Source of the DNA: Parcubacteria group bacterium
GTDB taxonomy: Bacteria > Patescibacteriota > Minisyncoccia > UBA6257 > JACRHW01
Assembly: GCA_016217555.1 (NCBI GenBank)
Contig: JACRHW010000017.1
Location: 5,093-69,092, forward strand
Length of the DNA stretch: 64,000 nucleotides
Direction of reading: 5' to 3'
A model generated the notes under the pieces. It was not told the origin of the DNA and did not search any database. It was given only the letters and a program-made list of their open reading frames with translations. A program made the translations under genes and the position numbers. Shown here piece after piece: positions 1,976-63,735 of this stretch. Position 1 is the stretch's first letter. The number at the start of each line of letters is the position of its first letter.

Positions 1976-2908
1976 TTAGTGATGGGGGAGTTTTGGAACG
2001 AGTATATACATGAAATAGATAAGCCCTCCTGTGAGGCTGAAATAGTAGACGAGCCATTTTATTCTTGTGCTTCCGGAAATGATGTGGATTGGTTTTTCTT
2101 CTTTTTTGGGTAGTGTTTCGTGTCGGGTGTACTTAAATATCATGTAAAACAGGAAGTTAAGTAAGGTGACAAGTCCAATATCAAAGTTGTTTAGCCATGT
2201 GGGTTGGTTTCCGAAGCCCATAGACATGAGAACAATCATAATACATTCGCATACTATCCCAAGGATGAGCTTTGTGCGCGGGTGTATGTTAAAATCCGAT
2301 AATACAAGGACCCAGATGAGGAGCATCGATGGTTGCTTAAGAAGAACGGTAATACCAAGAAGTGTGAGCACGCCGATCCATTTAAACCATAGACCAATAA
2401 CCTTAGTAATTCTTCCGCCGTCGAGTGGGCTGAGTGGAATAAGGTTAAAGAGGTTAAGAAAGGCGGCAACATAGCTTAGGGCGAGGAAAAAGAGGTTTGT
2501 TGTCGGATTAAGGAGATATATTCCGTATGCCCCAAGAGCGGCGAGTGACCCCAAAAGTGGGCCACCATAGCCTACGAATGCTTCATCTTCTGGATGTTCG
2601 AAGGGTGGGGTGAAGATTGCTGCACCAAGAAAGGGGATAAAAATAGGTGCCGAGGTAGGAAGTCCTTTGATTTTGAGAGCAATAACATGCCCCATTTCGT
2701 GGATAAAAAGCATAACGACGAATCCAAGCGCAAACCACCATCCCCAGATAAAAGAATAGGAAAATACTGATACTATCATCGAAAGAATAAGCCAGAGAAC
2801 CTTCGTGAACTTAAGGAATTTCAACGCCTGAAGCGCCTTGAGGAGTTTTCCACCCTTGAAGACGATTGCAATAAAGGATCCAATAGGGGATCGTTTTTCT
2901 TGCATCAT
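1976..2908 (-). CDS. Peptidase M50 / site-2 protease family membrane metalloprotease
   Basis: HEMGH zinc motif lies within a TM helix, and NLIPLSPLDGGRI is the LDG motif of S2P. The protein is polytopic. Confidence 0.65.
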   Translation of the reverse strand: MMQEKRSPIGSFIAIVFKGGKLLKALQALKFLKFTKVLWLILSMIVSVFSYSFIWGWWFALGFVVMLFIHEMGHVIALKIKGLPTSAPIFIPFLGAAIFTPPFEHPEDEAFVGYGGPLLGSLAALGAYGIYLLNPTTNLFFLALSYVAAFLNLFNLIPLSPLDGGRITKVIGLWFKWIGVLTLLGITVLLKQPSMLLIWVLVLSDFNIHPRTKLILGIVCECIMIVLMSMGFGNQPTWLNNFDIGLVTLLNFLFYMIFKYTRHETLPKKEEKPIHIISGSTRIKWLVYYFSLTGGLIYFMYILVPKLPHH

Positions 2909-3058
2909 TTTGCCTCCATTTTTGTTTTCAAGAATCTAAGATAGGTGTACATGAAATCCTATGTGTTGTCAAAAACAGGAAGTGTGTAGATTTTTCCTTG
3001 TTTCGTGTGTTTCCTTTTGGTAAGATGAAGATATTATTAACAATAAGTATAATAGTAT

Positions 3059-3832: not shown

Positions 3833-4052
3833 CATCTATCTATTTTACGCATAGCTTTGTCAGAAACTACGTTTTTTATTCGCTGTACTGTCTTGTACAG
3901 CTCACAAAAAGCCTCGTTTCTTTCGCGCTCTGCATCAAAATATATAGATGTTATAGTATTTCCTGAGCTCGCCTGTGGTGAGTTTATCGAATCCATCGAG
4001 GACCCACTACTATTGTCCTATAAGCTATCAGCTAACACCTAAAAGCTAAACT

Positions 4053-13048: not shown

Positions 13049-13055
13049 TAGCTTA

Positions 13056-13173
13056 AGAAATCAAAACGCAAAACGCAAAATTACAGCTCAAAACTAAAAA
13101 CTATCTTACTATTTTTTAAGTTTTAATTTTTTTGGTTGTAGTTTTGCCTTTTGACTTTTAAGTTTTGAATTTC
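13056..13173. repeat. AT-rich CAAAAC-type long imperfect palindrome (family A, copy 1)
   Basis: Arms of about 45 bp (GAAATCAAAACGCAAAACGCAAAATTACAGCTCAAAACTAAAAAC ... GTTTTGCCTTTTGACTTTTAAGTTTTGAATTTC). Homologous copies lie at 14889-14988 and 37035-37136. Confidence 0.6.
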
Positions 13174-13231
13174 TACTGTGCTTAACTACAACTTTAATTC
13201 ACGGTTTCGTTTTGTGAAAGCGTCTACGATT

Positions 13232-14878: not shown

Positions 14879-14888
14879 CCTCGGTAAA

Positions 14889-14988
14889 ATAAAAACTCAA
14901 AACGCAAAAGTCAAAACTACAACTAAAAACGTAAAACTTTTGATTTTTGAGTTGAAGTTTTGTGTTTTGACCTTTACGTTTTGAATTT
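14889..14988. repeat. Family A palindrome, copy 2
   Basis: AAAACTCAAAACGCAAAAGTCAAAACTACAACTAAAAAC ... inverted arm GTTGAAGTTTTGTGTTTTGACCTTTACGTTTTGAATTT. Confidence 0.6.
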
Positions 14989-14993
14989 ATACT

Positions 14994-15248
14994 ATGTATC
15001 GTTCCTTTAAGGACATTGCTTTAAAAAAATATGGGCGTATTCTCTCGAGAAACGTAGTAACAAAGATGTGTAATCAGCTTATTTTTGATATTGTGGGGGA
15101 TGATGCGCGTATTGAACGTCATTTTGGAAATACGGTCGTAGTAAAATGCAACAATGCTTCAGCCGCCGCGTTTTTGAGGGCACGAGAGCAGGGGATATTA
15201 GGCGCAGTAAAGAAGTTGGGAATCACAACAATACATTACAGGACGTAA
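14994..15248 (+). CDS. DUF721-family (DciA-like) small protein
   Basis: Pattern IFDIVGDDARIERHFGNTVVVKCNNASAAAFLRAREQGIL matches the DUF721 layout. Confidence 0.4.
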   Translation: MYRSFKDIALKKYGRILSRNVVTKMCNQLIFDIVGDDARIERHFGNTVVVKCNNASAAAFLRAREQGILGAVKKLGITTIHYRT

Positions 15249-18975: not shown

Positions 18976-19061
18976 TTTTCATTATAATGACCCCATGTAG
19001 ATGGGGCTTTGTTTTTTCTTTGGTTTTATGACATAGTTACAATAATATCTTGAATTAAGAA

Positions 19062-19204
19062 GTGTGTATTTCGAACCATTCCGCAGACGCGAAGCTGGGT
19101 GTTGTCAACCCCGAGTGGAAACGAGTTGGGTTGACAACGGAGCGTCTGCGGGTGGAGTGAGTCGCCGCGGGAGTGACGAACGCGTGAGAAACACACATTT
19201 CGTA
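19062..19204 (-). repeat. Structured about 140-170-nt repeat element, family C copy 1 (reverse orientation relative to copies 2 and 3)
   Basis: Its reverse complement aligns with 32616-32746 and 60190-60361. It has an outer stem CCGCAGACGC/GCGTCTGCGG and an inner stem GTTGTCAACCC/GGGTTGACAAC. Confidence 0.7.
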
Positions 19205-19296
19205 ATTCAAGGAATAATATGTCTTCGAGTATTTTTTTATTTATCGTATTCATCTCCCTATTTTATATAGGTGTTCTTTCAATTTTTATCTAAGAT

Positions 19297-22339: not shown

Positions 22340-22353
22340 ATAAAACAAAGTCT

Positions 22354-22436
22354 TTGTATCTAGTATCTTGTATCTGGTATGTGTTCATAGGGGCAGATAA
22401 ATACTAAATACAAGATACTATATACTAACTACTAAG
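22354..22436. repeat. GTATCTAGTATCTTGTATCTGGTATG-type hairpin repeat (family D, copy 1)
   Basis: 5' module GTATCTAGTATCTTGTATCTGGTATG and inverted 3' module ATACAAGATACTATATACTAACTAC. Related copies lie at 31886-31921 and 45431-45556. Confidence 0.5.
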
Positions 22437-22441
22437 TAATT

Positions 22442-23481: not shown

Positions 23482-23543
23482 TATAAAATCCCCCGAAAGG
23501 GGGATTTTATATTGTAAACCATAGTATGCCCTCCAAGTGATAT

Positions 23544-23682
23544 AGCGCTGTTCGGTAACCTCATACGTATTAGTGCCTGAGCTTGTCGAAGGCCCACCTT
23601 TCTCTAAGGAAACCCTTCGACTTCCTTCGACAAGCTCAAGACAAGTCGCTCGGGGAATACCATGTTTCCGAACAGCGTCGCT
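23544..23682. repeat. Composite palindromic repeat with AGCGCTGTTCGGTAAC terminal inverted repeats (family E, copy 1)
   Basis: Ends are AGCGCTGTTCGGTAACCTCA ... TTTCCGAACAGCG. The interior is CCTGAGCTTGTCGAAGG / CCTTCGACAAGCTCAAG hairpins. Confidence 0.6.
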
Positions 23683-26891: not shown

Positions 26892-27004
26892 GGCGCTGTT
26901 TTGAAACACAATATTCCCTGAGCGAAGTCGAAGGGTTTCCTTAGAGAAAGGCAGGCCTTCGACAAGCTCAGGCACTAGTAATTATGAGGTTACCGAACAG
27001 TGCC
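26892..27004. repeat. Family E composite palindromic repeat, copy 2 (reverse orientation, internally deleted)
   Basis: GGCGCTGTT ... CCTGAGCGAAGTCGAAGGGTTTCCTTAGAGAAAGGCAGGCCTTCGACAAGCTCAGGCAC ... GGTTACCGAACAGTGCC. The interior is the reverse complement of the copy-1 interior. Confidence 0.6.
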
Positions 27005-27016
27005 AAATAGACTTGA

Positions 27017-27117
27017 CCCCGTTAGAAGTAGACAAAATGTGTTAAAATCTTTAGGCTAAAAATGTGGTATCTAGATGTATTGAATCTTAAAAACGTTTTC
27101 GCTACTTCTAACGGGGT
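27017..27117. mobile_element. MITE-like element with 15-bp terminal inverted repeats CCCCGTTAGAAGTAG (family F, copy 1), flanked by TTGA/TTGA
   Basis: CCCCGTTAGAAGTAG ... CTACTTCTAACGGGG is a perfect TIR. The flanks are ACTTGA|...|TTGACTT. The second copy at 51688-51786 has TGAA flanks. Confidence 0.55.
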
Positions 27118-27190
27118 TGACTTAAAACAAAGAATATACCATAAAGAGGTAGAAACATTTTTATGGTATGCGAGGTAGTATACAAAGGGT

Positions 27191-29922: not shown

Positions 29923-31884
29923 ATGTCTGACGCACAATTTGATCTCGCTATTGGGGAGACGAACTTTCGCAACCAACGCGTGAGATTTGGTATTCGCCAA
30001 GACGATCGTAGGCGTCATACATATGTAATAGGTAAAAGCGGTATGGGAAAGAGCGTACTCCTTGAAAATATGGCCATCCAGGATATGGAGGCGGGGCGTG
30101 GTCTCGCATTTATTGATCCTCATGGAGATACCGCTGAGAAGCTTTTGGATTTTGTCCCAAAGTCTCGTATTAACGACGTTATTTACTTTGATCCTTCGGT
30201 GCTTGATCATGCAATCGCCCTTAACCCCATGGAAAATGTATCTATTGATCGGCGTCATCTTGTGGCATCGGGGCTTATGAGCGTGTTTAAGAAAATATGG
30301 CCTGATGTGTGGTCTGCGAGAATGGAATATATTTTGAATAATTGCCTCATGGCGCTTCTTGAGATTCCCGATGCAACACTTCTTGGTGTCATGCGTCTTC
30401 TAAACGACAAGGATTATAGAAAATATGTTATCGATCAGCTTACTGATCCTCTCGTGCGAGATTTTTGGACGAAGGAGTTTGCGCGTTATAAAGACCAGTT
30501 TCAGACGGAGGCAATTGCGCCTATTCAAAATAAGATTGGTCAGCTTACCATGAATCCTCTTATCCGTAATATTATTGGACAACCCAAATCGACCATTGAT
30601 ATTCGAAAAATAATGGATGAAGGAAAGATTTTTTTGGTAAATCTCTCTCGTGGGAGAATTGGAGAGGATAATAGCAGCATCCTTGGTTCTTTGCTCGCCA
30701 CAAAACTTCAGCTCGCAGCTATGAGTAGGATTGATATTCCACGCGAGGAGGACAGAAGAGATTTTTATTTGTATATTGATGAGTTTCAACATTTTGCGAC
30801 GCCGTCATTTGCTGCCATTCTTGCCGAGGCGCGCAAGTTTCATCTCAATCTCATCGTAGCTAATCAATACATGACTCAGATGGATGAGACGGTGCGAGAC
30901 GCCATAGTAGGAAACGTAGGGACTATGATGGTGTTTCGCATTGGTGCAGACGACGCCGAGTTTTTTGAAAAGGAGATGTTCCCTGTATTTCTTATGACTG
31001 ATTTGGTAAATCTTCCTCGTGCCCAAGTTATTATGAAGCTTATGATTGACGGGGCAACTTCTCCGCCTTTTTCCGCAGTGACACTTCCTCCGGCATCAAA
31101 ACCAGAGGTCAGTTTTCGTGATGAGATTTTGAAGGTTACCTACTCCACTTATTCTATTGCTCGTGAACGCGTAGATGAGATTATAAATGAATGGTTGAGT
31201 ACTAATTTTGTTTCTGACAAAGATGGTGGTGTCGATGGCGTCATTCCAGGAGGTGTAGCTCCCCGCGAAGGTGTTGGGGCAAGTCAAGACGTGGGTGTAC
31301 AACCTCAGCGTGAGATGTTTAACGCGGTGTGTTGGAATTGTACCGCAGAGACGCAGATTCCTTTTCAGCCCGATCCAAAGTGTGCAGTATATTGCAAAAA
31401 CTGTCTTAAACTTATTCAAGCCGGGAAGATTCTTCCACCGACGCGTCCAAGAGGTGGAGCACCTCTTCCGTCACAAGTACAACAGCAAAGCGCACCTCCT
31501 ATGCCGCCGTCACCACTACAAGCACAACAACCCGTCGTGAAACGGCAAGATGTTTCGTCTGTTCGCCAAGAAACTCCAATAGTAAAGGAATCACAGCAAG
31601 CACCTCGCCCACAATATGTTTCCGGGCAACATATGTCTTCCCAACCTCAAGCGCCGCAGTCTTCTGGGTCATCAGAGCAACCACCTATGCAACAATCGCA
31701 ACAAAACATTTCTTCGAGGTCACAACCTCTACAGGTACAACATTCATCTGCGACATCGTATCTCGACACTATGCTTAAGCAAGCTCCACCTCGCGAGGCG
31801 CGCAAGTTTGCTCCCCCAAAAAAGGAGGTAAATCTCGACGAGCTCAAAAAAGCGATTGAGGAATCTTTGAAGTCTGTGAAGTGA
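29923..31884 (+). CDS. VirD4/TraG/TraD-like (type IV coupling protein family) P-loop ATPase with a Q/P/S-rich tail and a C-terminal zinc ribbon
   Basis: Walker A is HTYVIGKSGMGKS. The TraG-D_C-like Walker B region is FYLYIDEFQHF...AEARKFHLNLIVANQ. The zinc ribbon is CWNCTAETQIPFQPDPKCAVYCKNC. Confidence 0.55.
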   Translation: MSDAQFDLAIGETNFRNQRVRFGIRQDDRRRHTYVIGKSGMGKSVLLENMAIQDMEAGRGLAFIDPHGDTAEKLLDFVPKSRINDVIYFDPSVLDHAIALNPMENVSIDRRHLVASGLMSVFKKIWPDVWSARMEYILNNCLMALLEIPDATLLGVMRLLNDKDYRKYVIDQLTDPLVRDFWTKEFARYKDQFQTEAIAPIQNKIGQLTMNPLIRNIIGQPKSTIDIRKIMDEGKIFLVNLSRGRIGEDNSSILGSLLATKLQLAAMSRIDIPREEDRRDFYLYIDEFQHFATPSFAAILAEARKFHLNLIVANQYMTQMDETVRDAIVGNVGTMMVFRIGADDAEFFEKEMFPVFLMTDLVNLPRAQVIMKLMIDGATSPPFSAVTLPPASKPEVSFRDEILKVTYSTYSIARERVDEIINEWLSTNFVSDKDGGVDGVIPGGVAPREGVGASQDVGVQPQREMFNAVCWNCTAETQIPFQPDPKCAVYCKNCLKLIQAGKILPPTRPRGGAPLPSQVQQQSAPPMPPSPLQAQQPVVKRQDVSSVRQETPIVKESQQAPRPQYVSGQHMSSQPQAPQSSGSSEQPPMQQSQQNISSRSQPLQVQHSSATSYLDTMLKQAPPREARKFAPPKKEVNLDELKKAIEESLKSVK

Positions 31885-31885
31885 C

Positions 31886-31921
31886 CTTGTATTTAGTATA
31901 TCGTATCTTGTATAGTGTATG
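31886..31921. repeat. Family D repeat fragment (copy 2)
   Basis: CCTTGTATTTAGTATATCGTATCTTGTATAGTGTATG. Confidence 0.4.
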
Positions 31922-31954
31922 AATCCGCCGCAGGCGGATTATATCAGATACTAT

Positions 31955-32524: not shown

Positions 32525-32525
32525 T

Positions 32526-32600
32526 ATTCCTTGAGCGAGGTCGAAGGGCTATTATACTTGTTTGTCATTCCCGCGCAGGCGGGAATCCAGTGTAAATAAA
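32526..32600. repeat. Fragment of palindromic repeat modules (GTCGAAGGG... plus the GTCATTCCCGCGCAGGCGGGAATCCAG hairpin)
   Basis: ATTCCCGC-GCAG-GCGGGAAT is a perfect hairpin, related to the family E interiors. Confidence 0.5.
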
Positions 32601-32615
32601 TCGCATCCTATATAT

Positions 32616-32746
32616 TTCTCACCCATTCGCCACTCCAGCGTGCGGCTCACTCATCCACAGACGCTTCGTTGTCAACCCAACTCATTCTGATTCGGAGTTG
32701 ACAACACCCTGCTCCGCGTCTGCGGAATGGTTCGAAATACATGTGT
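32616..32746 (+). repeat. Family C structured element, copy 2
   Basis: CTCACTCATCCACAGACGCTTCGTTGTCAACCC ... GGAGTTGACAACACCCTGCTCCGCGTCTGCGGAATGGTTCGAAATAC. Confidence 0.7.
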
Positions 32747-32805
32747 TGTGATTCAGAAAATTTTATACGTATCAGCTCACAAGACTGAGTGGAAAAATAA
32801 GATAG

Positions 32806-32866
32806 TGCCTGAGCTTGTCGAAGGCCTACCATAAGGAAACCCTTCGACTTCGCTCAGGGACTATAG
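32806..32866. repeat. CCTGAGCTTGTCGAAGG / CCTTCGACTTCGCTCAGG hairpin module (family E interior type)
   Basis: GTGCCTGAGCTTGTCGAAGGCCTACCATAAGGAAACCCTTCGACTTCGCTCAGGGAC. Confidence 0.5.
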
Positions 32867-32975
32867 ATAAAGACTAACTTACTCAGAGTTGTGAGCTGAT
32901 ACTTTTACACCTATTGACTAAACTACACCGTTTGTGGTATTTTTGTTTTAGCACATAGAAAAAGGAGGTAGTGAG

Positions 32976-35732: not shown

Positions 35733-37034
35733 ATGGTTAAAAAATCAATTTTGTTTTTATTAGGTTTTATTATCATATTTTTAGTAGTGTTTGGTGTCGT
35801 AAAGAAATATCATATTTTTTCACGGTTTGTATCTCTACGTGGTTCGTCGTTGTCTGAACTGTCTTTTGAGGATGCATTAAAACAGGGTTTTCAGAAGAAA
35901 ATTCAGAGAGAGGTCCTCCTTGCCACAACATCAGACAAAATAACACTAGAAAGGAAGGAGGAATATGTTGCCGTAGTAGACTACGAACAGAGAGTAATTC
36001 GTGCCATAGAGAAGTCGTCGCCTGCGGTAGTGAGTGTGATTATCTCTAAAGATGTGCCAGTACTCGAGCAGTATTACGCAACCCCTCTTAATAACGATCC
36101 ACTTTTCCAAGATTTTTTTGGGGGACAAGTACAGATTCCTCAGGTGCGTCAAGGGGGGGTAGAGCGTAAGGAGGTGGGAGGGGGCTCGGGGTTTATTATT
36201 TCTTCCGATGGTCTTATCGTGACTAATAAACACGTTGTTTCTGATCCGAATGCTTCGTATATTATATTGCTTAATGATGGGAAGAGATTTCCTGCAAAGG
36301 TGCTTGCGAAAGATGCACAGCAGGATATGGCAGTTCTTAAAATAGAGGCAAGTGGGCTTCCTACTCTTTCGTTGGGAGATTCTGATACGGTGAGAATCGG
36401 GCAAACGGCAATTGCAATCGGAAATTCATTGGGTGAATTCCGGAATACTGCTTCTACCGGAATAATTTCCGGATTGGCGCGTACTATTACCGCAGGAGGG
36501 GGTGGTATCGTGGAGACACTTCAGGGAGTTATTCAGACTGATGCGGCAATCAATCAGGGGAATTCGGGTGGGCCACTTCTTAATCTTCGTGGTGAGGTAA
36601 TTGGTGTTAATGCGGCAATAGCTCAGGGTGCTCAGAGTGTTGGATTTGCCATTCCTATCAACAAAGTAAAACGTGCTATTGAGGATGTGAAAGCTACCGG
36701 AAAGATCTCCGCTCCCTACCTTGGAATACGGTATGTTATTCTTGATGAGATAGTACAAAAAAAAGAGGGGCTAGGTGTTTCTTATGGTGCTTTCGTCCGT
36801 AGTGGTGAGAAGGGTGGCGTAGCCATTGTTCCCAATTCTCCTGCAAAGAAGGCGGGTATTAAAGAAAGGGATATTATACTCGAGGTTAATGGCAAGAAAG
36901 TGACCAAGGACGTTCCCTTGACCGATATAGTAAGCCAGTATAAGGTAGGGGATACGTTGACGCTTAAGGTCTTGCGTGGGAGCGAGACGATTGAAGTTAA
37001 AATAACCCTAGAACAAAGACCAACAAATCTTTAA
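35733..37034 (+). CDS. htrA: HtrA/DegP-family serine protease (trypsin domain plus PDZ)
   Basis: Catalytic triad context TNKHVV ... D ... GNSGGPLLN, with a C-terminal PDZ-like region. Confidence 0.85.
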   Translation: MVKKSILFLLGFIIIFLVVFGVVKKYHIFSRFVSLRGSSLSELSFEDALKQGFQKKIQREVLLATTSDKITLERKEEYVAVVDYEQRVIRAIEKSSPAVVSVIISKDVPVLEQYYATPLNNDPLFQDFFGGQVQIPQVRQGGVERKEVGGGSGFIISSDGLIVTNKHVVSDPNASYIILLNDGKRFPAKVLAKDAQQDMAVLKIEASGLPTLSLGDSDTVRIGQTAIAIGNSLGEFRNTASTGIISGLARTITAGGGGIVETLQGVIQTDAAINQGNSGGPLLNLRGEVIGVNAAIAQGAQSVGFAIPINKVKRAIEDVKATGKISAPYLGIRYVILDEIVQKKEGLGVSYGAFVRSGEKGGVAIVPNSPAKKAGIKERDIILEVNGKKVTKDVPLTDIVSQYKVGDTLTLKVLRGSETIEVKITLEQRPTNL

Positions 37035-37136
37035 CTCAAAAATCAAAATGCAAAACTACAACTAAAAACTGAACGAACCAGCAAAAAAGTTTTATGGTTT
37101 TTAGTTGAAGTTTTGACTTTTGATTTTTAATTTTTT
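37035..37136. repeat. Family A palindrome, copy 3
   Basis: CTCAAAAATCAAAATGCAAAACTACAACTAAAAAC ... GGTTTTTAGTTGAAGTTTTGACTTTTGATTTTTAATTTT. Confidence 0.6.
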
Positions 37137-37141
37137 ACACC

Positions 37142-39754
37142 ATGTTTGCCCCATTTAATCGTTTTACATTGAAGGCTCAGGAGGCGATTCAGGCGGCGCA
37201 GGATCTTGCTCTTGAGCGGAATAATGCTGAGCTTAAATCACTCCATCTTTTGGTTGCCCTCCTTGATCAGGAGGAGTCTTTGGTATTTGTTGGGCTTGCA
37301 AAGTTGGGGGTAAATTTGAATTCATTGCGTGCCGCAGTTGAAGTCGAACTCAATCGCCTTCCTCGCGTCGCAGGAGGTGCGCAAAAGGCCCAGCTTTATA
37401 TTTCACAGGAGATGATGCAGATCCTCGAGATTGCGTCTCGAGAGGCGGCTAAAATGAAAGATGAGTTTATCTCGTGTGAACATCTCTTTCTTGGTGTGCT
37501 TGAGGTCGCATCAAGGAGTCGTGAGGTGTTGAAGAATTTTGGAATAAATTATGCAGAGTTTGTAAAAACCCTCCTTGATGTAAGGGGGGGTATGCAGGTG
37601 AACGACGAAACACCAGAGACGAAGTTTAAGACACTTGAAAAATACGCAATCAATCTTACTCAGCTTGCGCGTGAGGGGAAACTTGATCCCACTATTGGGA
37701 GGGACAATGAGCTGAGGCGATTAATACAAATTCTTTCGCGCAGGACAAAGAACAATCCTATTTTAATTGGTGAGCCAGGGGTGGGAAAGACGGCGATTGT
37801 TGAGGGGTTAGCGCAGCGCATTATATCGCAGGATGTACCTGATTTGCTTCAGGGAAAGGAGGTGATTTCACTTGATCTGGGGGCGCTTATTGCTGGTACT
37901 AAGTTTAGAGGTGAGTTTGAGGACCGTCTGAAGGCGTTTATCAAAGAACTTCAAAAGCAGCAGGGGAGGTACATTCTTTTTATCGATGAAATTCATATGA
38001 TTGTAGGGGCTGGTGCTGCAGAGGGGGCGGTTGATGCAGCAAATCTATTAAAATCTCCCCTTGCACGAGGAGAGCTACGTGCCATTGGAGCGACAACGCT
38101 CAAGGAGTATCAGCGACATATCGAGAAAGATGCGGCGCTCGAGCGTAGATTTCAACCTATTCTTGTGGAGGAGCCAAGTATCGAGGATAGTATCGCTATC
38201 CTCCGCGGTCTTAAAATTAAATATGAAATGCATCATGGTGTCAAAATTTCTGATGGTGCTATTGTCGCGGCGGTAAATTTAGGAAGTCGTTATATTTCTA
38301 ATCGCTTTTTGCCCGACAAGGCGGTTGATCTTATAGACGAAGCTTCATCAAGTGTAAAGATTGAGATGGGGTCTATGCCAGTAGAACTTGAGAAGGGTTC
38401 TCGCCTTATTACTCGGCTCGAGATAGAAAAAGAATCGCTTAAGAAAGAGTTGTCGATGGTAAGTAAGAAGCGTCTTCACGAGATAGAGATCGAGCTTACA
38501 AAACTCCATGGAGAAAAGGATGGCTTGATGGGGCAATGGAAAAGCGAAAAAGATGCAATAGAAAAGGTGAACGTATTGCACCGCTCTATTGACGAATTTA
38601 AGCAAGATGCCGAGCGCTACGAACGGGAGGGTGATCTTGAAAAGGTTGCCGAGCTTGTGTATGGAAAAATTCCGCATGCAGAGAAAACACTGACGAATCT
38701 CGAAAGAAAAACAGCAAAAGCACAGCAAAGTTTCCAATTTGTAAAGGAAAAAGTTACCGAGGAGGAGATCGCAAAGGTGGTTTCGCGATGGACGGGCATC
38801 CCTGTTCACAAAATGCTTGAGGGCGAATCTGAAAAACTAAGAACGATGGAGGAGGTGCTGCATAGGCGGGTGGTGGGGCAGGAGGAGGCGGTTACCGCCG
38901 TTTCCCGGGCTATTAAGAGAAGTCGTCTTGGACTTTCTGACGAAAATAAACCGATCGGCTCCTTCTTGTTTTTGGGGCCTACAGGAGTGGGAAAGACAGA
39001 GCTTGCAAAAACGCTTGCTGATTTTATGTTTAATGATGAAAATGCAATTATTCGTCTTGATATGTCTGAGTATATGGAACAGCATTCTATTGCGAAGCTT
39101 ATCGGTTCTCCTCCGGGATATGTCGGATATGATGAGGCGGGGCAACTTACTGAAATCGTAAAACACAGGCCATACTCTCTTATTCTTTTTGATGAAATCG
39201 AAAAGGCACATCCCGAGGTCTTTCATATTCTTCTTCAGGTTCTCGATAATGGGCGCCTTACCGATTCGAAAGGGAGAATGGTGAATTTCAAGAATACGAT
39301 TATTATTATGACCTCAAATATTGGAGGGGAGTTTATCCAGGAGGGAAATCTTGGATTTGCAATGGGAGATAGGTCGGTGGGAGAGGTAAATACCAAAATT
39401 AGAATTCAAGATGCGCTTAAGGGCTATTTCCGCCCCGAATTTCTTAATAGAATCGACGAAATTGTGATTTTTAATGCTTTGCGTGAAGAGGATTTGGAAA
39501 AAATTATTGATCTACAATTAACACAAGTGAGAGAGCGTCTTGCTAAAAAGAATATCGTTTTAAAGATAGACGAAAAAGCACGGAAATATCTTGTCGAGCA
39601 TGGCTATGATCGCGATTTTGGAGCGCGCCCCCTGAAGCGTCTTATACAAAAGCTTGTCGTAGATGCTGTTGCTCAAAAGCTTATTTCCGGAGAACTTAAG
39701 GAGGGCAGGGTGAATGTATCGATGAGGGGACAGGAACTTGTCTTTAGCCGGTAA
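37142..39754 (+). CDS. clpB: ATP-dependent chaperone ClpB
   Basis: Two AAA+ modules (GEPGVGKT and GPTGVGKT), a long coiled-coil M-domain between them and a Clp N-domain. 870 aa. Confidence 0.9.
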
Positions 39755-40751: not shown

Positions 40752-42728
40752 ATGCGTACACTTGTAAAAATCTTTCTTTTTCTTTCTATTTTTTCTTTAA
40801 TAATTTTTTCTACCGATTTATTTTTTCCCTATATTACGGGTAAGATTTTTGCATTTCGTTTTTTCATTGAATTTGCTTTTATCGCATGGATTCTTGATCT
40901 TTTTTTGCGAAAAACGTTACGGTTCCGTTTTTCCGAGCCAATAGTGAAGGCTCTTCTCATTTTTTCCGGCTCCCTAATTGTTTCTGCCTTTTTTGGAGTA
41001 AATCCTTCGTTTAGTTTTTGGTCTGATTTTGAACGTAGCGAGGGACTATTCTCCTTTTTTCATTATCTCGCGTTCTTTATTATGCTTCTTGATGTGTTTG
41101 TCATGGATGATTACTATCGTTTAATTAAAGCATTTCTTATTATTTCTCCTTTTATTGCCTATTATCAGTTTTCTAATTATGTAAATATTGAAAAACATGC
41201 TTTTGGAAGAATTAATGGACTTCTTGGAAATCCTTCCTATGTGGCAACATTTCTTCTTTTTGTTTTTGGTCTTGGTTTTTATCTTGTTCTTAAAAATAGA
41301 GAACTGTTTCGCTCAACAAAAGACGTCTTTGTGTTGTTTGAGAACTGGCTTTGGTGTTTAATTTTATTGATTGACATTCCTGCCTTTTTCTTTACACAAA
41401 CACGTGGAGCATATGTGGGCGTTTTTGTGGCATTGGTTGTTTATCTTATTATGCTTGGGCGATATGGGGTGGCAAAGGAAAAAAAGATGGCCCGGTACAG
41501 TCTTCTTTTTCTGAGCATTTTTATCGTTTTGGGCAGTGTGCTTATCTTAAAAACAAATGTACTCCCATCGAATTTAAAAGATCCGGGAAGTTTGGTTTCT
41601 CGTTTTTCTACATGGAAGGCCGCTTTGCGTGGATTTCTTGATCGTCCTTTGCTCGGATATGGTCCCGAAAATTTTAACATTGCTTTTGATAGACACTATG
41701 ACCCAGTCCATTCGGGACTAGAGACGTGGTTTGATCATGCACACAATCTTCCCGTTGAGCTTCTTGCGGTGACAGGCGTTGTCGGTTTTCTTGCGTATTT
41801 ATATATTTTTTATATTTTTTTTCGCTATTACTTCTCGATTATCCTTAAAAAACGTCCTATCTATGAAGCGGCTCTTTTCCTTGCAATCCCTGTAGCATAT
41901 TTCATTCAAAATCTTGCCCTATTTGATTCTCTTACCTCTTATGTTTTATTTTTTACATTTCTCGCCTTGGCACGCACCATCGTACTAAGGGAAACCAATA
42001 CATATAGTACCAATATAGTGTATTTTGGACGACCATTATTTATTGGGTTGTGTTGCATCATTCTTTTTTTTGCCCCCCTTTTTGGGATATATTCAAACAT
42101 ATTTGCACTACAAAAAAACATGCGCCTTCTCGCCACATTTTTACCACCACAACAATCGTTTTCTCCGAGCGCAAAAGTAAATGTATATAAGCAACTGTTT
42201 GATTTGCCGGGTTTTGTGGGGAGACGTGAGATTTCTACCGCTCTTGCAAAAGATATATTCGATTGGTCTTCTTCTCGTAATCTTAGTAAGTTTTCCAGAG
42301 AAGATTTTGATGCTTTGAATGAAGGAATAAATATGAGTGAAGAATATCTAACACATGACCCTTCTCATATTCGCAATTATTATTTGTTGGGATATGCTTA
42401 TTCATCAATTGGGGGTTATTTTAAAGACAGAAAGGCTCTGATTCGCGGAGAGGATATCCTCAAAAGAGCAGATAAGTTGAGTCCTGGTAGAATAGAATTT
42501 CTTGAAGTTCTGATTAAAAATCTTGGCGCGCAGAAGAAATATGACGAAGCTCTTAAGTATTCTTTAGAAATTATACGATTGCGCCCCGATATGGAGGCGG
42601 GTCACCGATTCGCCGGAGTCTTTTATCAAAAGATAGGAGAGACAAAGAAGGGGAAAGAAGAGCTTGGCAAAGCATTATTGATTAATCCATCTTCAACCGC
42701 ATCCATATTTTTAGAAGAGAACAAGTAG
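40752..42728 (+). CDS. O-antigen-ligase-like (Wzy_C) membrane protein with C-terminal TPR repeats, paralogue 1
   Basis: TQTRGAYVGVF ... WFDHAHNLPVELL is a Wzy_C/O-antigen ligase signature. The C-terminal 200 aa are TPR-like. 658 aa. Confidence 0.55.
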   Translation: MRTLVKIFLFLSIFSLIIFSTDLFFPYITGKIFAFRFFIEFAFIAWILDLFLRKTLRFRFSEPIVKALLIFSGSLIVSAFFGVNPSFSFWSDFERSEGLFSFFHYLAFFIMLLDVFVMDDYYRLIKAFLIISPFIAYYQFSNYVNIEKHAFGRINGLLGNPSYVATFLLFVFGLGFYLVLKNRELFRSTKDVFVLFENWLWCLILLIDIPAFFFTQTRGAYVGVFVALVVYLIMLGRYGVAKEKKMARYSLLFLSIFIVLGSVLILKTNVLPSNLKDPGSLVSRFSTWKAALRGFLDRPLLGYGPENFNIAFDRHYDPVHSGLETWFDHAHNLPVELLAVTGVVGFLAYLYIFYIFFRYYFSIILKKRPIYEAALFLAIPVAYFIQNLALFDSLTSYVLFFTFLALARTIVLRETNTYSTNIVYFGRPLFIGLCCIILFFAPLFGIYSNIFALQKNMRLLATFLPPQQSFSPSAKVNVYKQLFDLPGFVGRREISTALAKDIFDWSSSRNLSKFSREDFDALNEGINMSEEYLTHDPSHIRNYYLLGYAYSSIGGYFKDRKALIRGEDILKRADKLSPGRIEFLEVLIKNLGAQKKYDEALKYSLEIIRLRPDMEAGHRFAGVFYQKIGETKKGKEELGKALLINPSSTASIFLEENK

Positions 42729-42776: not shown

Positions 42777-44753
42777 ATGCGTGTTCTTGTAAAAATCTTT
42801 CTTTTTCTTTCTATTTTTTCTTTAACGTTTTTTTTAGCTGACTATTATTTCCCCTATATTGTCAGCAAGGTATTTCCTTTTCGATTGTTTATCGAGCTTG
42901 CGACAATCTCGTGGCTCATCAATCTCTATTGGTTTCGTATAATACGTTTTAAGTTTTCTGAACCTATTGTAAAGGCTGTTCTTGTTTTTTCTGGGGCACT
43001 TCTTGCCTCCACTCTTTTTGGGGTGAACCCACTCTTTAGTTTTTGGTCTAATTTTGAACGGAGCGAGGGGCTTTTTTCTTTCTTGCATTATTTAGCATTT
43101 TTCATCCTCCTCATTGATGTATTTTCTGAAGATGACTACTATCGTCTTATTAAGTTTCTTCTTCTCCTCTCCCCGCTTATTTCTTATTATGGGTTTTCGA
43201 GTTTTCGGGATGCTAATACTTATCAGTATGGAAGAGTGTTTGGGGTTTTTGGAAATCCCTCATACCTTGCGGCATTTCTTATTTTTGTGTTTGGGTTTGG
43301 TGTGTTGTTGATTTTGAGAAATATAGAATTTGCTAAAGTTTTGAAGGATCCCTTGTTGATTGTCGAAAATATACTTTGGATAGTTCTTTTGTTGGGAGAT
43401 GTTCCAGCATTCATTCTTACACAGACAAGAGGTGCTTACATTGGACTTTTGGTTGGCGTGCTTGTTTTTCTTATCTTTCTTTTGCGGCAGGGAAAGGGGG
43501 TTCAGAAAAAATATGCTGTCGGAGGTCTCATTGTACTTCTTTCTCTTGTTGCGCTTGCGGGGTTTGTCATTTTAAAAACCAAAATAGCTCCGGCGAATCT
43601 TAAGGATCCATCCACACTTGTCTTTCGTTTTGCTACGTGGGGTTCAGCATGGAAATCATTTCTCGACCATCCTCTTTTCGGGTATGGTATGGAAAATTTT
43701 TCAGTTGGATTTGATAAGCACTATAACCCAATCCATTCGGGTGTTGAAGTCTGGTTTGATCACGCCCACAGTGTGATATTTGATGCACTTGCAAGCACGG
43801 GTCTCTTGGGACTTATTTCCTATATTGCTATTTTTGTAGTACTATTTCGTTTCTATCTTCCCGTGATCACAAAACGACGCCCGGTGTTGGAGGCTGGTGT
43901 ATTCTTTGCCCTTCCTATTGCATATTTTGTCCAAAACCTTGTTTTGTTTGATACCCTTTCTTCCTATATCCTTTTCTTTCTCTTTCTTGGTGTGGTGCGT
44001 TCAGTGTTTTTGAAGGAGACAAGCAAGAATAAAGAGAAAACTTTTTTTGCGGCACACCCCATACTACTAAGTTTTGTAGTGGTGATGCTTGTTATTGCTG
44101 TAGTTTTTGGTATTTATGCGAACTTTGTTGCTTATCAAAAAAATAGGGAGTTAAGGACCGCCTACACTCTTTCTCGCCAATCCCAACTTCCTCGTGGAGT
44201 GGAGGAGTATCGAGGATTACTTGATATGCCAGGATATTTAGGAAGAAGGGAGGTGATTAAGGATTTTGCCGCTTATTTGTATGAGTGGTCCGCAAAATCT
44301 GATTTGCGGTCTCTTTCCAAAGAGGATGGTGGTGCCCTGGGTGGGGGCTTGAGGACAGTAAACGATTTTCTTGACAAGGAAGATCCTCAATACCTTAATG
44401 GATATTATCTTTTTGCGAATACCTATAACGTGATTGCATTTAAATTGGGTGATGCTACCGTGTTTCAAAAGACGGAATCTACCCTAAAAGAAATGAATAC
44501 AAAGAGCCCAAATCGCATAGAAATAATCAATTTGCTTGCAGATAATCTTATTGCACAGAGAAAGTATGACGAGGCGCTTAGTTATGCGCTTCAAATTACA
44601 ACACTGCGTCCTGACATGGAGGTGGGGCATAGGCTTGTTGGGTTTGTATACAATAAGATAGGGAGGCGTGACGAAGCTAAAAAAAAGGGGGAGGAGGCTT
44701 TACGTATCAATCCAAGCTCTACCGCCGCAGAATATCTTAAAAAAATACGTTAA
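42777..44753 (+). CDS. O-antigen-ligase-like (Wzy_C) plus TPR membrane protein, paralogue 2
   Basis: Same length (658 aa) and architecture; TQTRGAYIGLLVG ... WFDHAHSVIFDAL. The 5' 50 nt are nearly identical to paralogue 1. Confidence 0.55.
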   Translation: MRVLVKIFLFLSIFSLTFFLADYYFPYIVSKVFPFRLFIELATISWLINLYWFRIIRFKFSEPIVKAVLVFSGALLASTLFGVNPLFSFWSNFERSEGLFSFLHYLAFFILLIDVFSEDDYYRLIKFLLLLSPLISYYGFSSFRDANTYQYGRVFGVFGNPSYLAAFLIFVFGFGVLLILRNIEFAKVLKDPLLIVENILWIVLLLGDVPAFILTQTRGAYIGLLVGVLVFLIFLLRQGKGVQKKYAVGGLIVLLSLVALAGFVILKTKIAPANLKDPSTLVFRFATWGSAWKSFLDHPLFGYGMENFSVGFDKHYNPIHSGVEVWFDHAHSVIFDALASTGLLGLISYIAIFVVLFRFYLPVITKRRPVLEAGVFFALPIAYFVQNLVLFDTLSSYILFFLFLGVVRSVFLKETSKNKEKTFFAAHPILLSFVVVMLVIAVVFGIYANFVAYQKNRELRTAYTLSRQSQLPRGVEEYRGLLDMPGYLGRREVIKDFAAYLYEWSAKSDLRSLSKEDGGALGGGLRTVNDFLDKEDPQYLNGYYLFANTYNVIAFKLGDATVFQKTESTLKEMNTKSPNRIEIINLLADNLIAQRKYDEALSYALQITTLRPDMEVGHRLVGFVYNKIGRRDEAKKKGEEALRINPSSTAAEYLKKIR

Positions 44754-44791
44754 TTATAGTATTGCCTGAGCTTGTCGAAGGCTTACCATTT

Positions 44792-45445
44792 ATGGAAGAT
44801 TTTTCTCAGATATTTCAGACTATCGTTCGTGCGCTTTACATGGTTGCAGGGGGTATTTCTGATGTTTCTTATAAGGAACATTTTAAGTCTGAAATTTTTC
44901 TTTTTGTAGAGGCATATTTTAGACGCGATGTGGAATTGTTTAAAGAACGTGGTTTTATTCTCGATTTCTTTTTGAAGACGGCTATGGATTTGCAGTTTAC
45001 GGCAGAAGAAAATTATATTGTTTTGCACAGGGAAATAAAATCCTTTACAGACAAGTTTGTGGCACATGCAAACGACAAACTTCTTGTTTCCGGTATTCTC
45101 GATTTCCGGAAACTGTTTCCGGAAAAACCAATGCCTGAAGGAGGAGAGGCGGAAGGGGTGGGAAGCCGTTTTGGGATCAATCTCCCTATCCGTGCACCAA
45201 AGATGCGATCGTTTTCTGGTAACAGGATTGTCGGGCTTACGGAACGTCAGCAGTCTATTCTGGAACTTCTCTGTGAAAAAGAAAGTATTCCGCTTATGGA
45301 TGTCCTTGCTCGTTTTCCGGAAATGAATGAGAAGACTATTCGGAATGATCTTCGACTATTGTGTGAGAAGGGGTATGTAAACCATATAGGAAGTGGCGGG
45401 CGGGGAAGTAGATACCAGTTTGTACGTGAAGTATCTAGTATTTAG
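44792..45445 (+). CDS. Hypothetical protein with a C-terminal winged-helix/DeoR-like HTH
   Basis: RQQSILELLCEKESIPLMDVLARFPEMNEKTIRNDLRLLCEKGYV. The start was moved to the ATG at 44792 because the track start lies in a repeat. Confidence 0.4.
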   Translation: MEDFSQIFQTIVRALYMVAGGISDVSYKEHFKSEIFLFVEAYFRRDVELFKERGFILDFFLKTAMDLQFTAEENYIVLHREIKSFTDKFVAHANDKLLVSGILDFRKLFPEKPMPEGGEAEGVGSRFGINLPIRAPKMRSFSGNRIVGLTERQQSILELLCEKESIPLMDVLARFPEMNEKTIRNDLRLLCEKGYVNHIGSGGRGSRYQFVREVSSI

Positions 45446-45556
45446 TATCGTGTATCTGGTATGACCAACCAATAAGAAAGAATTAATAGTAAGGAAAATC
45501 AAAGAATGTGCTTGTGGGGTATACTAACTACAAGATACTGGATACAAAATACACAT
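45431..45556. repeat. Family D repeat, copy 3
   Basis: GTATCTAGTATTTAGTATCGTGTATCTGGTATG ... GGTATACTAACTACAAGATACTGGATAC. Confidence 0.5.
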
Positions 45557-46088
45557 TCTGTAACGTAATTTCTTATCGATTCGTTATAATTAACAAGGAA
45601 CACAGTGTTTTTTATTAGTTTTCCACAGTGAGATCTATTGCAAGGGGGTTGCTTTTTTTGCTAAAATAGAGTATACTAAGCAGGACTCAAGGAATGTAGG
45701 AAAACACTAGGTTTTTTCGCCAAACGGGCGGGCTTTTAGGGAGCGTTTTTCTTTTCACACCTGTTTTATCGCAATGTTGTGATACAATAGGTGTGAAAAG
45801 AAAAGGGACGTAACGATTGCAGTAGATAGACAGGAGGTGATGGACTGTTATTTGAAAACTGAATAAGGGCTAGATAAAAAATGGTAGCGCCTGAGCTTGT
45901 CGAAGGCTTACCAAATTAATTCTTTTTTTCTCGATGTAATGAGTCGTAATCAAGGTCGGTGATTCGTTTAACACGAATCATGCTCTCGGCTCTTCTAGAA
46001 ATGTGTATGTAAACAAATAATTAAGCGATTTGTTTTGTGGCGTCGAACCACAAAGGAATCGCGTAACAAAAATTAAATACAAAAAATT

Positions 46089-51476: not shown

Positions 51477-51580
51477 TGCCACCTTAGCTCAGCTGGCAGA
51501 GCAACACTTTTGCTCCGATATTGTATAAAATCATAAATTTTGTACAATATCGAGAGTCCTCGATTTTATAAAAAAAATTT

Positions 51581-51654
51581 GCCAGAGTAGCTCAGCTGGC
51601 AGAGCAACACTTTTGTAAAGTGAAGGTCGCGAGTTCGAATCTCGCCTCTGGCTC
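51581..51654 (+). tRNA. tRNA-Thr (anticodon UGU)
   Basis: GCCAGAG...CTCTGGC-T acceptor stem, anticodon loop TTTGTAA and T-loop GTTCGAATC. Confidence 0.8.
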
Positions 51655-51687
51655 ACGCAAATTTTTATAAAATCGGGATAAAGTGAA

Positions 51688-51786
51688 CCCCGTTAGAAGT
51701 AGGTAAAAACATTTGTTGTTCGTCTCGTGTATATCATAGATGGTACAATAATGTAGAAAAATTGTTTTTGTATACTTCTAACGGGG
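51688..51786. mobile_element. Family F MITE-like element, copy 2, inserted into the 3' half of the split tRNA (TGAA duplication)
   Basis: CCCCGTTAGAAGTAG ... CTACTTCTAACGGGG. The flanks are AAGTGAA| and |TGAAGGTC. Confidence 0.55.
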
Positions 51787-51827
51787 TGAAGGTCCTCGGT
51801 TCGAATCCGAGAGGTGGCTCAGGTATT

Positions 51828-58732: not shown

Positions 58733-60169
58733 TTGATTATGAAAGATCCTCTTATTGCATTAAGCTACGACGATGTGCTTCTTGTGCCTCGTTTTTCGCG
58801 TATTCGTTCGAGAAGAGAGCCGGTACTTAAAACACGATTTACAAAAAACATTGCACTTAATATCCCTATTGTGAGCGCTAATATGGATACCGTGACAGAG
58901 TCAAAGATGGCGATTGCGCTGGCGAGGTTTGGAGGCATTGGCGTAATACATCGTTTTCTCTCCATTGAGCGTGAAGTAGAAGAGGTTTCAAGAGTAAAGC
59001 GTGCAGAGGCATATGTGATCGATGACCCCTATACTGTTTCTTCTGAGATACTTCTCAAGGATGCAAAGCAGAGGATGTATACATTAGGAGCTGCGTTGTT
59101 GGTAATTGATGAGCATAGAAAACTTATTGGTATTCTTACTCACAGAGACGTAGAGTTTGTTGATAGTACTACCTTGCGTGTATCTGATGTAATGACGAAG
59201 GAGTTAATTACTGCATCACCTAAGATTTCTTTGGATGGGGCTAAAGAAGTATTTATGAAACAAAAAATAGAAAAACTCCCTCTTGTTGATGCGAAGGGAA
59301 TTTTGAAAGGGCTTATTACCAAAAAGGACATTCTTGCACGTATTCGGTATCCAGAAGCTGCAAAGGATAAGAAGGGAAGATTGCTTGTGGGTGCTGCTGT
59401 GGGGGTTGTGGGGGATTATAAAGAACGTACCAAGGCGCTCATCGAGGCTGGTGTAGACGTAATTGTAATCGATATCGCACATGGGCATTCGATCATGATG
59501 AAGGAAGCGATGGCGAGCATTAAAAAAATAACAGGAGAACACGTTGATATTATTGCGGGAAATGTTGCGACGAGAGATGGGATGCGCGACTTGGTGAGGT
59601 GGGGCGCTGATGCGGTAAAGGTGGGGATTGGCCCTGGGGCGGCATGTACTACACGTATTATGACGGGTGTTGGAGTACCTCAGTTTTCTGCGGTATATGA
59701 GTGTGCAGGAGAAGCTAAGAAACTTCGTGTCCCTGTAATTGCAGATGGGGGGGTTAAAAATTCTGGTGATGTGACGAAAGCGCTTGCCGCAGGTGCCGAG
59801 ACGGTGATGATAGGAAGTATGTTTGCCGGTACGGATGAAAGTCCGGGGCAGGAGATCGTAAAAAACGGGGCGCGGTATAAACTCTATCGTGGCATGGCAT
59901 CGATTGGTGCAAACGTCGCCAAAACAAATATCTCCGGATTACAAAAAGGTGTTAACTATGAACGTATTACACCAGAGGGGGTGGAGGCAGTAGTGCCCTA
60001 TAAGGGTAAGATTGACGCGACCATTTCGTTGCTTCTTGGGGGGCTTCGGTCGGGGATGAGTTACTTGGGTGCAAAGACTATTCCCGAGATGTCAAAGAAT
60101 GCTGAATTTATACAAATTACACAGGCGGGACTTAGAGAGAGTAATAGCCATGATATTGATGTGAAATAA
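58733..60169 (+). CDS. guaB: IMP dehydrogenase family protein (tandem CBS domains inserted in a TIM barrel)
   Basis: N-terminus [13 protein letters not shown], catalytic loop [11 protein letters not shown] (Cys), a CBS pair, and C-terminus [12 protein letters not shown]. Confidence 0.75.
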
Positions 60170-60189
60170 TTATTTTTGTAAATTATGAT

Positions 60190-60361
60190 TTACGAAACCT
60201 CTCTTCCTCACACGTTCGGATACCTAGCGGTATCCTCACTCATCCGCAAGCGCTTCGTTGTCAACCCAACTCTCCGCCATCCGCCAACTGGCTGAGGCGG
60301 ATCGGGGTTGACAACACCCTGCTTCTCACTTGCGGAATGGTTTGGAAGAGATGTTTCGTAA
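60190..60361 (+). repeat. Family C structured element, copy 3 (full length, with 19-bp TIRs TTACGAAACCTCTCTTCC / GGAAGAGATGTTTCGTAA)
   Basis: The core CTCACTCATCCGCAAGCGCTTCGTTGTCAACCC...GGGGTTGACAACACCCTGCTTCTCACTTGCGGAATGGTTTGG is shared with copies 1 and 2. The loop carries an extra CCGCC/GGCGG hairpin. Confidence 0.7.
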
Positions 60362-60471
60362 GTCATCACTATAAAAGTACAATATACTTTTTAAGTCAAG
60401 TTCACTAATTATATAAAAGAGGTACACTGGGGCTAGTTACTTTGAAAAAAGAAAAAGGGAGTGTGACTGTC

Positions 60472-63613: not shown

Positions 63614-63735
63614 TAGCGCTGTTCGATAACCTCGCATTTGTCATTCCCGCGTAGGCGAGAATCCAGGTTTTTTCATACTCTGGATCCCCGGGTCAAGCCC
63701 GAGGATGACAGAATTGTGGAGTTATCAAACAGCGC
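63614..63735. repeat. Family E composite palindromic repeat, copy 3 (same TIRs, different interior hairpins)
   Basis: Ends AGCGCTGTTCGATAACCTC ... GTTATCAAACAGCGCC. Interior GTCATTCCCGCGTAGGCGAGAATCCAGG and CTGGATCCCCGGGTCAAGCCCGAGGATGACA. Confidence 0.6.

Follow-up and report, generated by a model that had tools for sequence, protein, structure and literature searches.

What kind of element recurs, as a branched hairpin of variable stems and a nearly constant core, in the gene spacers of a Parcubacteria genome? The question arises from a 64,000-nucleotide stretch of contig JACRHW010000017.1 from a Parcubacteria group bacterium, referred to below as the window, in which an earlier note had picked out three copies of a structured repeat, here called family C. 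That note had left several options side by side, namely a mobile, hairpin-forming terminator, a MITE, or miniature inverted-repeat transposable element, and a small structured RNA family. The evidence assembled below indicates that family C is probably a non-autonomous DNA transposon, that is a MITE, of one Parcubacteria clade, with a fold that acts as a single strand.

Copies, empty sites and a target duplication

A covariance model of the whole family recovers exactly three copies (c1, c2 and c3) in the window and nothing further, and a search of the window with a 12-mer from the inner stem returns three hairpins and one chance site. All three copies are present where the earlier note had placed them, with ends slightly wider than given there because the closing stem, P1, belongs to the element. 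The copies, and the direct repeats that flank the first of them, are the following:

19049-19211, minus strand: c1, whole element, 163 nt (covariance model R1, 168.8 bits)
32597-32755, plus strand: c2, whole element, 159 nt (covariance model R1, 166.5 bits)
60185-60366, plus strand: c3, whole element, 182 nt (covariance model R1, 167 bits)
19041-19048, plus strand: first copy of the c1 target-site duplication, AATAATAT, 8/8 identical to 19213-19220
19213-19220, plus strand: second copy of the c1 target-site duplication, AATAATAT, separated from the element by an extra G at 19212

Each copy is intergenic, and the neighbours named earlier (leuS, efp and guaB, the last encoding IMP dehydrogenase) are confirmed by Pfam. 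c1 has an ordinary intrinsic terminator (18991-19006) on one side and leuS (start at 19297) on the other, c2 occupies the spacer that separates efp from a NUDIX gene, and c3 comes directly after the IMP dehydrogenase gene (58739-60169), the next gene, of 711-721 aa, starting at 60442 or 60472. Across the window and related contigs, the covariance model yields 22 non-redundant copies, all of them intergenic and 159-191 bp in length, at a density of roughly one copy per 10-20 kb.

Comparison of orthologous sites, a check that the earlier note had proposed, shows that all three sites vary between relatives. c1 is absent upstream of leuS in L128, L129, L130 and L131, loci whose LeuS is 71-83% identical to that of the window, and c3 is absent 3' of guaB in L132, L133, L134 and L135 (GuaB 74-89% identical), two of these empty relatives having guaB spacers of only 95-105 nt. 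At the c2 site L078 has the element; L010 does not, and its entire spacer measures 125 nt. In addition, the window lacks any counterpart of a copy that lies upstream of SHMT in L129 (L129:1280-1462). The clearest trace of insertion is found at c1, where the locus reads GTTAC-AATAATAT-[CTTGAATT...AATTCAAG]-G-AATAATAT-GTCTTC. Once c1 and one AATAATAT are removed, GTTACA and TCGTATT are separated by 30 nt, the length found in L128, and the alignment with L128 needs no gap. The duplication can alternatively be read as 9 bp (CAATAATAT/GAATAATAT, an 8/9 match), and c1 is the only one of the 22 copies with a perfect 8/8 flank match. Family C is a mobile element, and the presence/absence differences, together with the 8-bp duplication of c1 and its colinear empty site, support the MITE option of the earlier note. 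Moreover, the family has the size of a MITE, lacks a conserved open reading frame (ORF), carries terminal repeats, shows a target duplication in one copy, and is dispersed in polymorphic copies.

The known range of the element is narrow. When one genome per species was searched for the exact inner-hairpin pattern, seven loci were found, in two metagenome-assembled genomes of the candidate phyla radiation (CPR). The same pattern gave 118 matches in metagenomes, most of which are unrelated palindromes; after filtering by flank motifs and the covariance model, every true member is on a CPR-like contig from a groundwater or lake sample. No family C copy occurs in ~36 kb of a relative with LeuS 71% and GuaB 78% identical (L131, L134), nor in 21 kb of a relative with GuaB 74% identical (L135). 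Phage and plasmid collections contain no match at all, and the one match among viral contigs, a palindrome matching both strands, is taken as chance. Because of these absences, family C appears to be confined to one genus-level Parcubacteria clade.

The spacers in which these sites lie differ in other ways among the relatives. In the window the efp/NUDIX spacer (32525-32975) is 450 nt long and accommodates a stack of four different repeat elements; L078 (7632-7907) has 277 nt there, with family C as the sole element, and L010 (9273-9396) has 125 nt and no element. All three retain, ahead of the NUDIX gene, a motif resembling a promoter or terminator, TTGACT...TGGTATTTT. At the guaB-downstream site, L132 carries a different element (~2860-3000) with inverted ends CAATGTTCCGCAGAGAC...GTCTTTGCGGAACATTG, which the family C model does not match. 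The ~76 nt between c1 and the leuS start (19221-19296) are common to L128 and L129 and absent in L130, where the leuS start directly follows GTTACAGTGGT; with ATGC repeats on either side, this segment has the look of a further old insertion.

Fold, covariation and constraint in place

On its canonical strand, the element has a shared architecture of 160-180 nt, composed of stems P1 and P2, a P3/P4 arm and sometimes P5. The closing stem P1 spans 18-25 bp in every copy, with a sequence that differs among copies. It is followed by TCAC and by a conserved helix, P1b, in which A-C-x-CGTTC pairs with GGAATGGT, including a conserved G.T pair. Next come the P2 hairpin (5-10 bp, loop C(C/A)AGC(G)), the motif CTCACTC, stem P3 (8-10 bp), TTC and stem P4 (GTTGTCAACCC/GGGTTGACAAC), whose loop is 19 nt or longer where it holds the P5 hairpin. 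ACACCCxGCTxC follows P4, and the 3' part then runs through P3', AATGG, P1b' and P1'. Each P4 arm is, furthermore, an interrupted palindrome in itself (GTTG-N-CAAC). In c3 these parts are arranged as follows:

60185-60207, plus strand: P1 5' arm (terminal inverted repeat), ATGATTTACGAAACCTCTCTTCC, pairing with 60344-60366
60344-60366, plus strand: P1 3' arm, GGAAGAGATGTTTCGTAAGTCAT, pairing with 60185-60207
60218-60235, plus strand: P2 side hairpin (helix 3), GGATACC-tagc-GGTATCC
60244-60253, plus strand: P3 5' arm, CCGCAAGCGC, with partner TCACTTGCGG at 60326-60335; 8/10 positions pair
60257-60315, plus strand: P4, near-invariant stem GTTGTCAACCC/GGGTTGACAAC around a 37-nt loop
60279-60302, plus strand: P5 in the P4 loop, ATCCGCC-aactggctga-GGCGGAT, a subfamily insertion common to L004a

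The fold of c3 reaches -90.7 kcal/mol (z = -10.9), and c1 and c3, on either strand, fold far better than shuffled sequences (z from -6.4 to -10.9). Several details of the fold had been proposed from the three window copies. The inner stem, described as identical throughout, is the same in c1 and c3 (GTTGTCAACCC/GGGTTGACAAC), but c2 has one C.A mismatch (GGAGTTGACAAC); the loop, given as 16-37 nt, does reach 37 nt in c3 but measures 19 nt in both c1 and c2. The extra hairpin in the c3 loop (ATCCGCC...GGCGGAT) is real, recurring in L004 and, in shorter form, in L010 and L004b. The exchange in the outer stem from CCGCAGACGC/GCGTCTGCGG in c1 to CCGCAAG.../...CTTGCGG in c3 is a true double compensatory change, and the c3 outer stem has two additional mismatches (C.A and C.T) towards the loop. 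A terminal repeat is likewise present in c3 (TTACGAAACCTCTCTTCC/GGAAGAGATGTTTCGTAA); it pairs at 17/18 positions and continues outward as ATGA.TTACG.../...CGTAA.TCAT. The idea that c1 carries a degenerate version of this repeat did not hold, since c1 is closed by a 24-bp stem of its own, CTTGAATTACGAAATGTGTGTTTC/GAAATACACACTTCTTAATTCAAG, in which 3 positions are mismatched.

Covariation across the family was assessed on 18 copies, aligned with MAFFT without reference to structure and folded with RNAalifold, which predicted 51 pairs; compensatory changes occur in 29 of these. In this alignment 90.8% of cells are paired, compared with 75.0% after column shuffling and 38-42% with slid partners, and 147 cells are changed on both sides, compared with 47.7 in shuffles. 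None of five covariation measures was reached by any of 500 shuffles. Covariation across the family lies above all 500 shuffles and all slid controls. The signal is borne by P1, P2 and P3: both-side changes occur in 19/20 pairs of P1 (helix 1, 85.8% of cells paired), in 4/5 pairs of P2, with variants such as GCCAC/GTGGC, GTCATCC/GGATGAC and CAAGAATGCC/GGCATTCTTG, and in 6/8 pairs of P3 (helix 4). In P4, 10/11 pairs are invariant, and the variants GTTGTCAATCC/GGATTGACAAC in L004b and L129 are compensated (C-G to T-A). P5 covaries as well, with TCCGCC/GGCGGA in L010 and TCTCCC/GGGAGA in L004b. Covariation therefore supports the helices beyond controls, and is equally compatible with a hairpin formed in DNA.

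Copies that share a site in different genomes allow the fold to be followed in place. Fourfold-degenerate sites between genomes sharing a filled site are 0.41-0.65 identical, while the cores of the same-site copies are 0.76-0.90 identical. In three same-site pairs, 21 double changes are compensated and 5 uncompensated. Unpaired columns are more alike than paired ones in two of these pairs (0.80 and 0.83 vs 0.68 and 0.66), and the L010/L004b pair shows the opposite trend (paired 0.89 vs unpaired 0.84). The P1 stems of L001 and L005 are only 57% identical, with pairing kept in both; these two copies share derived features unique to them (GTTCCGAC...GGTCGTyACAA) and are therefore orthologous by descent. 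Since same-site copies exceed fourfold sites in identity and 21 pair changes are compensated, the fold has been maintained in place, and the copies are under constraint there. Selection on secondary structure, which had been argued from a single stem, is now supported by family-wide covariation and by the same-site pairs.

The terminal repeats vary in a different manner. A consensus repeat, (C)TTGAATTACGAAAT, is carried by c1, L028, L047 and L129. The lineage-private copies c1 and L129 have this consensus and the lineage-private c3 is three mismatches off, whereas older, shared copies (c2/L078 and L001/L005) have repeats that diverged and are still complementary. From the few copies whose sites were compared (c1, L129, c3, c2/L078 and L001/L005), we infer a link between the age of a copy and the sequence of its terminal repeat, young copies having the consensus and old ones a drifted form.

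Single strand, DNA palindrome or RNA gene

Several observations weigh against a MITE whose fold acts as a single strand. Neither the window nor ~400 kb of related loci yielded a parent insertion sequence or transposase whose ends match. Apart from c1, no copy has a target-site duplication that could be demonstrated: in the remaining 21 the best flank matches cover 2-6 of 8 positions, which does not stand out from chance where flanks are AT-rich. No part of the element varies more than its terminal repeats, which is unusual for ends recognised by a transposase. At the efp-downstream site, c2 has a core of type B and L078 one of type C, and L001 has type C at a site where the orthologous L005 has type B. 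Wobble counts on the canonical strand conflict: in the variable stems A.C outnumbers G.T (46 vs 13), an excess that would favour the opposite strand, while P1b contradicts this with 23 G.T and 2 A.C, all of these counts being phylogenetically non-independent. Both strands fold equally well, and between co-directional gene pairs the canonical strand is sense at ~9-10 sites and antisense at 3, which is not significant.

Some of these points can be set in context. Transposase domains, including Y1_Tnp, are absent by Pfam from 28 window ORFs; solitary left or right half-elements are absent from the loci examined; and the terminal repeat was not found beside an ORF elsewhere in these loci, a match in L007 lying within coding sequence. 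The core subtypes, which are defined by the P2 and P3 sequences, are mixed more widely than at the two sites named, one P1 type being found with three core types at unrelated sites. This pattern suggests exchange among dispersed copies, and gene conversion would explain the mixed subtypes; repeated insertion at one spot is the alternative. The loci of subtype mismatch are 32597-32755 in the window vs 7640-7800 in L078, and 3675-3835 in L001 vs 5055-5215 in L005. Furthermore, many copies occupy the entire gap between co-directional genes and are therefore probably co-transcribed with them.

The strongest competitor is a fold that matters at the DNA level only. Family C would then be a mobile palindrome with arms kept complementary by a mutational process, for which template switching in quasi-palindromes at replication and repair in extruded hairpins are candidates, and the conserved unpaired motifs and invariant GTTGNCAAC stems would serve as the binding targets of a transposase or of some other DNA-binding protein. 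Covariation cannot tell RNA from DNA hairpins, and the equal folding of the two strands, the lack of a consistent strand in the wobble test and the lack of a significant orientation bias all sit comfortably with this account. So does the palindrome within each P4 arm, as expected of a dimeric DNA-binding site, and the mosaic core subtypes at one site suggest exchange between copies at the DNA level. However, template switching fits short hairpins such as P2 and P5 and is less likely for P1, with arms ~120 nt apart, where pairing nevertheless stands at 86% and 19/20 pairs covary. It also leaves unexplained why unpaired junctions are conserved in place above fourfold sites, unless they are bound by a protein. 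A purely DNA-level role is considered unlikely.

A highly improbable reading is that a small structured RNA gene, or a cis-regulatory RNA, exists here in multiple copies, with apparent mobility resulting from duplication and loss. A covarying multi-helix structure with conserved loops and junctions would suit such an RNA, as would the persistence of some copies at one site across genomes near synonymous saturation. Yet no Rfam match was obtained at gathering or permissive thresholds: Rfam 15 at the gathering score identifies only tRNAs in the whole window, and the best permissive match of c3, mir-2392, reaches 22.8 bits where the gathering score is 90. A promoter scan detected no promoter-like site inside the elements, nor is one consistently found beside them. 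The unrelated neighbours (leuS, efp, guaB, SHMT and others) and the occurrence of both orientations argue against a cis-regulator, and the 8-bp duplication of c1 with its exact empty site is a signature of insertion, not of duplication and loss. With no promoter, no Rfam match and both orientations in use, the earlier suggestion of a small RNA family with independent genes finds no footing. The suggestion of a mobile rho-independent terminator is barely credible: the hairpins are GC-rich, stable and 3' of genes (efp, guaB), but most copies have no U-tract after P4, P3 or P1 in either orientation, the directly read flanks of c1-c3 contain no T-runs, a terminator scan is blank within the three elements yet detects ordinary terminators beside them (e.g., 18991-19006), and for many copies the gap to the next co-directional gene, which termination would silence, is a matter of a few nucleotides.

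Two further models were rejected. A coding element is contradicted by a reverse-strand frame that is open in only 9/21 copies, by a best frame that is interrupted in 12/21, and by subfamily insert lengths that are not multiples of three. Insertion of the core into an existing P1 palindrome is contradicted by the lack of solo P1 palindromes above chance in the window, and by the presence of one P1 type at non-orthologous sites with different cores.

Among known systems, the closest analogue of the MITE proposed here is bcr1 of Bacillus cereus. This MITE-like repeat of the Bacillus cereus group is ~155 bp long and has flanking direct repeats and a branched fold maintained by compensatory changes, and it is one of several MITEs with folds preserved in this way at the RNA level (PMC3184786). 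Family C (160-180 bp) resembles it in size, in being intergenic, dispersed and unconserved in distribution among related genomes, in its flanking direct repeats, and in a branched or cruciform-like fold with compensatory base changes. In contrast, the two share no sequence similarity, their hosts belong to different phyla, bcr1 is flanked by a 5-bp duplication and family C by one of 8 (or 9) bp, and bcr1 is transcribed whereas family C is known from DNA sequence alone. Correia/nemis in Neisseria and ERIC/IRU in enterobacteria are also MITEs, of ~100-170 bp, with terminal inverted repeats and long RNA hairpins when co-transcribed with adjacent genes. According to De Gregorio et al., Correia hairpins are reportedly cut by RNase III and ERIC hairpins are said to alter mRNA stability. 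Correia differs in its conserved 26-bp terminal repeats, TA duplication and IHF site; family C, unlike both, combines variable terminal repeats and an 8-bp duplication with a core that includes a side hairpin and an inner stem of almost constant sequence.

Resemblance to the REP/REPIN-RAYT (Y1/HUH) system is limited to abundant intergenic palindromes, REPINs being long hairpins with complementary arms. REP units measure 20-40 nt, lack a target duplication and flank a RAYT gene, whereas the unit of family C measures 160-180 nt, has a three-way junction and an 8-bp duplication, and is accompanied by no Y1 transposase among the scanned window ORFs. In unit length, duplication and the lack of a Y1_Tnp domain among those ORFs, family C does not fit that system. 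Nor does it fit the palindromes derived from IS200/IS605, which have asymmetric ends and subterminal hairpins and lack terminal inverted repeats and target-site duplications, as family C has both of the latter features.

From the observed mobility, the target duplication of one copy, the covariation of the fold and the constraint in place, a two-phase history of the MITE can be proposed. In a mobile phase, a transposase acting in trans would insert the 160-180-bp element into AT-rich intergenic DNA, duplicating an 8-bp (possibly 9-bp) target, and new copies would bear the repeat (C)TTGAATTACGAAAT. The single strand would fold as a branched hairpin made of P1 (~24 bp), P1b, P2, the P3/P4 arm and sometimes P5. 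In a resident phase, copies would stay long, their terminal repeat drifting while it keeps its pairing, their unpaired junctions and loops conserved, and their stems changing by compensated substitutions. The specific end sequence would thus matter for insertion, and later only pairing and the core would be maintained. The source of this constraint may be a need for single-strand folding and recognition. The likeliest setting would be RNA, within the stretches of operon transcripts that lie between genes; there, a nearly perfect duplex, 20 bp or longer, could serve as an RNase III substrate or an exonuclease barrier in transcript processing or stability. Correia, ERIC and REP elements have been reported to act through RNase III cleavage or as exonuclease barriers. 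Such an RNA-duplex mechanism is preferred by analogy with other MITEs (PMC3184786) and with the Correia and ERIC work mentioned above.

It is conceivable, albeit unlikely, that the resident copies have been domesticated, with a CPR-specific protein or RNase recognising the three-way junction and P4 in RNA or DNA. If so, the MITE would have spread a regulatory or processing module of the host through a streamlined genome of roughly 1 Mb, and purifying selection, conserved unpaired motifs and subtype exchange would be signatures of function rather than of transposition.

The tiny genomes of CPR bacteria are dense in genes and, by the usual account, contain little mobile DNA, and no description of MITEs in these organisms was found in the literature searched. 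Family C is a previously undescribed element of a known kind of bacterial repeat, and a well-behaved example of it. It combines a datable insertion, old retained copies and clear compensatory evolution in place. It is the one well-defined MITE family of the window, where no fewer than five further families of small repeats are stacked in the spacers that it occupies. Covariation alone would flag family C, which calls for caution when CPR spacers are mined for structured RNAs. Practical uses include a marker for strain and population genomics of groundwater CPR, and a candidate for testing whether such elements affect the processing of operon transcripts in hosts not yet grown alone.

Other repeats and genes in the window

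A second intergenic hairpin family, GCCTGAGCTTGTCGAAGGC/CCCTGAGCGAAGTCGAAGGGT, with arms of up to 85 nt that are 91% complementary, is found at 23540-23624, 26911-27008, 32527-32560, 32794-32864, 44751-44790 and 45876-45913. Members of a third, ACCCCGTTAGAAGTAG...CTACTTCTAACGGGGT, occur in the window (27012-27123 and 51681-51791), in L128 (~3925-4050) and in L129 (~6995-7125). In L128 and L129 the copy lies just 5' of the leuS start and is bounded by ATGC(A/C) direct repeats; it is missing in L130 and at that site in the window. In addition, a short palindromic repeat, TTTGTCATTCCCGCGCAGGCGGGAATCCAG, is present in two copies that are 93% identical (32561-32590 and 63637-63666). Two AT-rich inverted-repeat families also populate the spacers, AAAACGCAAAA...TTTTGCCTTTTG at 13054-13180, 14886-14996 and 37023-37149, and GTATCTAGTATCTTGTATCTGGTAT...ATACTAAATACAAGATAC at 22353-22437, 31884-31929 and 45438-45552.

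Three further features concern genes. Outside its own clade (74-89% identity), the IMP dehydrogenase encoded at 58739-60169 finds its best matches in archaea (Nitrososphaera and other Thaumarchaeota, 54-58% identity) rather than in other Patescibacteria, which hints at an archaeal origin of this gene. About 100 nt upstream of a tRNA gene (51581-51653) lies a 36-nt, 92% identical copy of its 5' half (51477-51512), for which Rfam makes no tRNA call. Finally, two tandem paralogous genes of 658 aa (40752-42728 and 42777-44753) are ~70% identical in DNA, and the first of them, the one covered by the domain scan, encodes an O-antigen-ligase (Wzy_C) domain.

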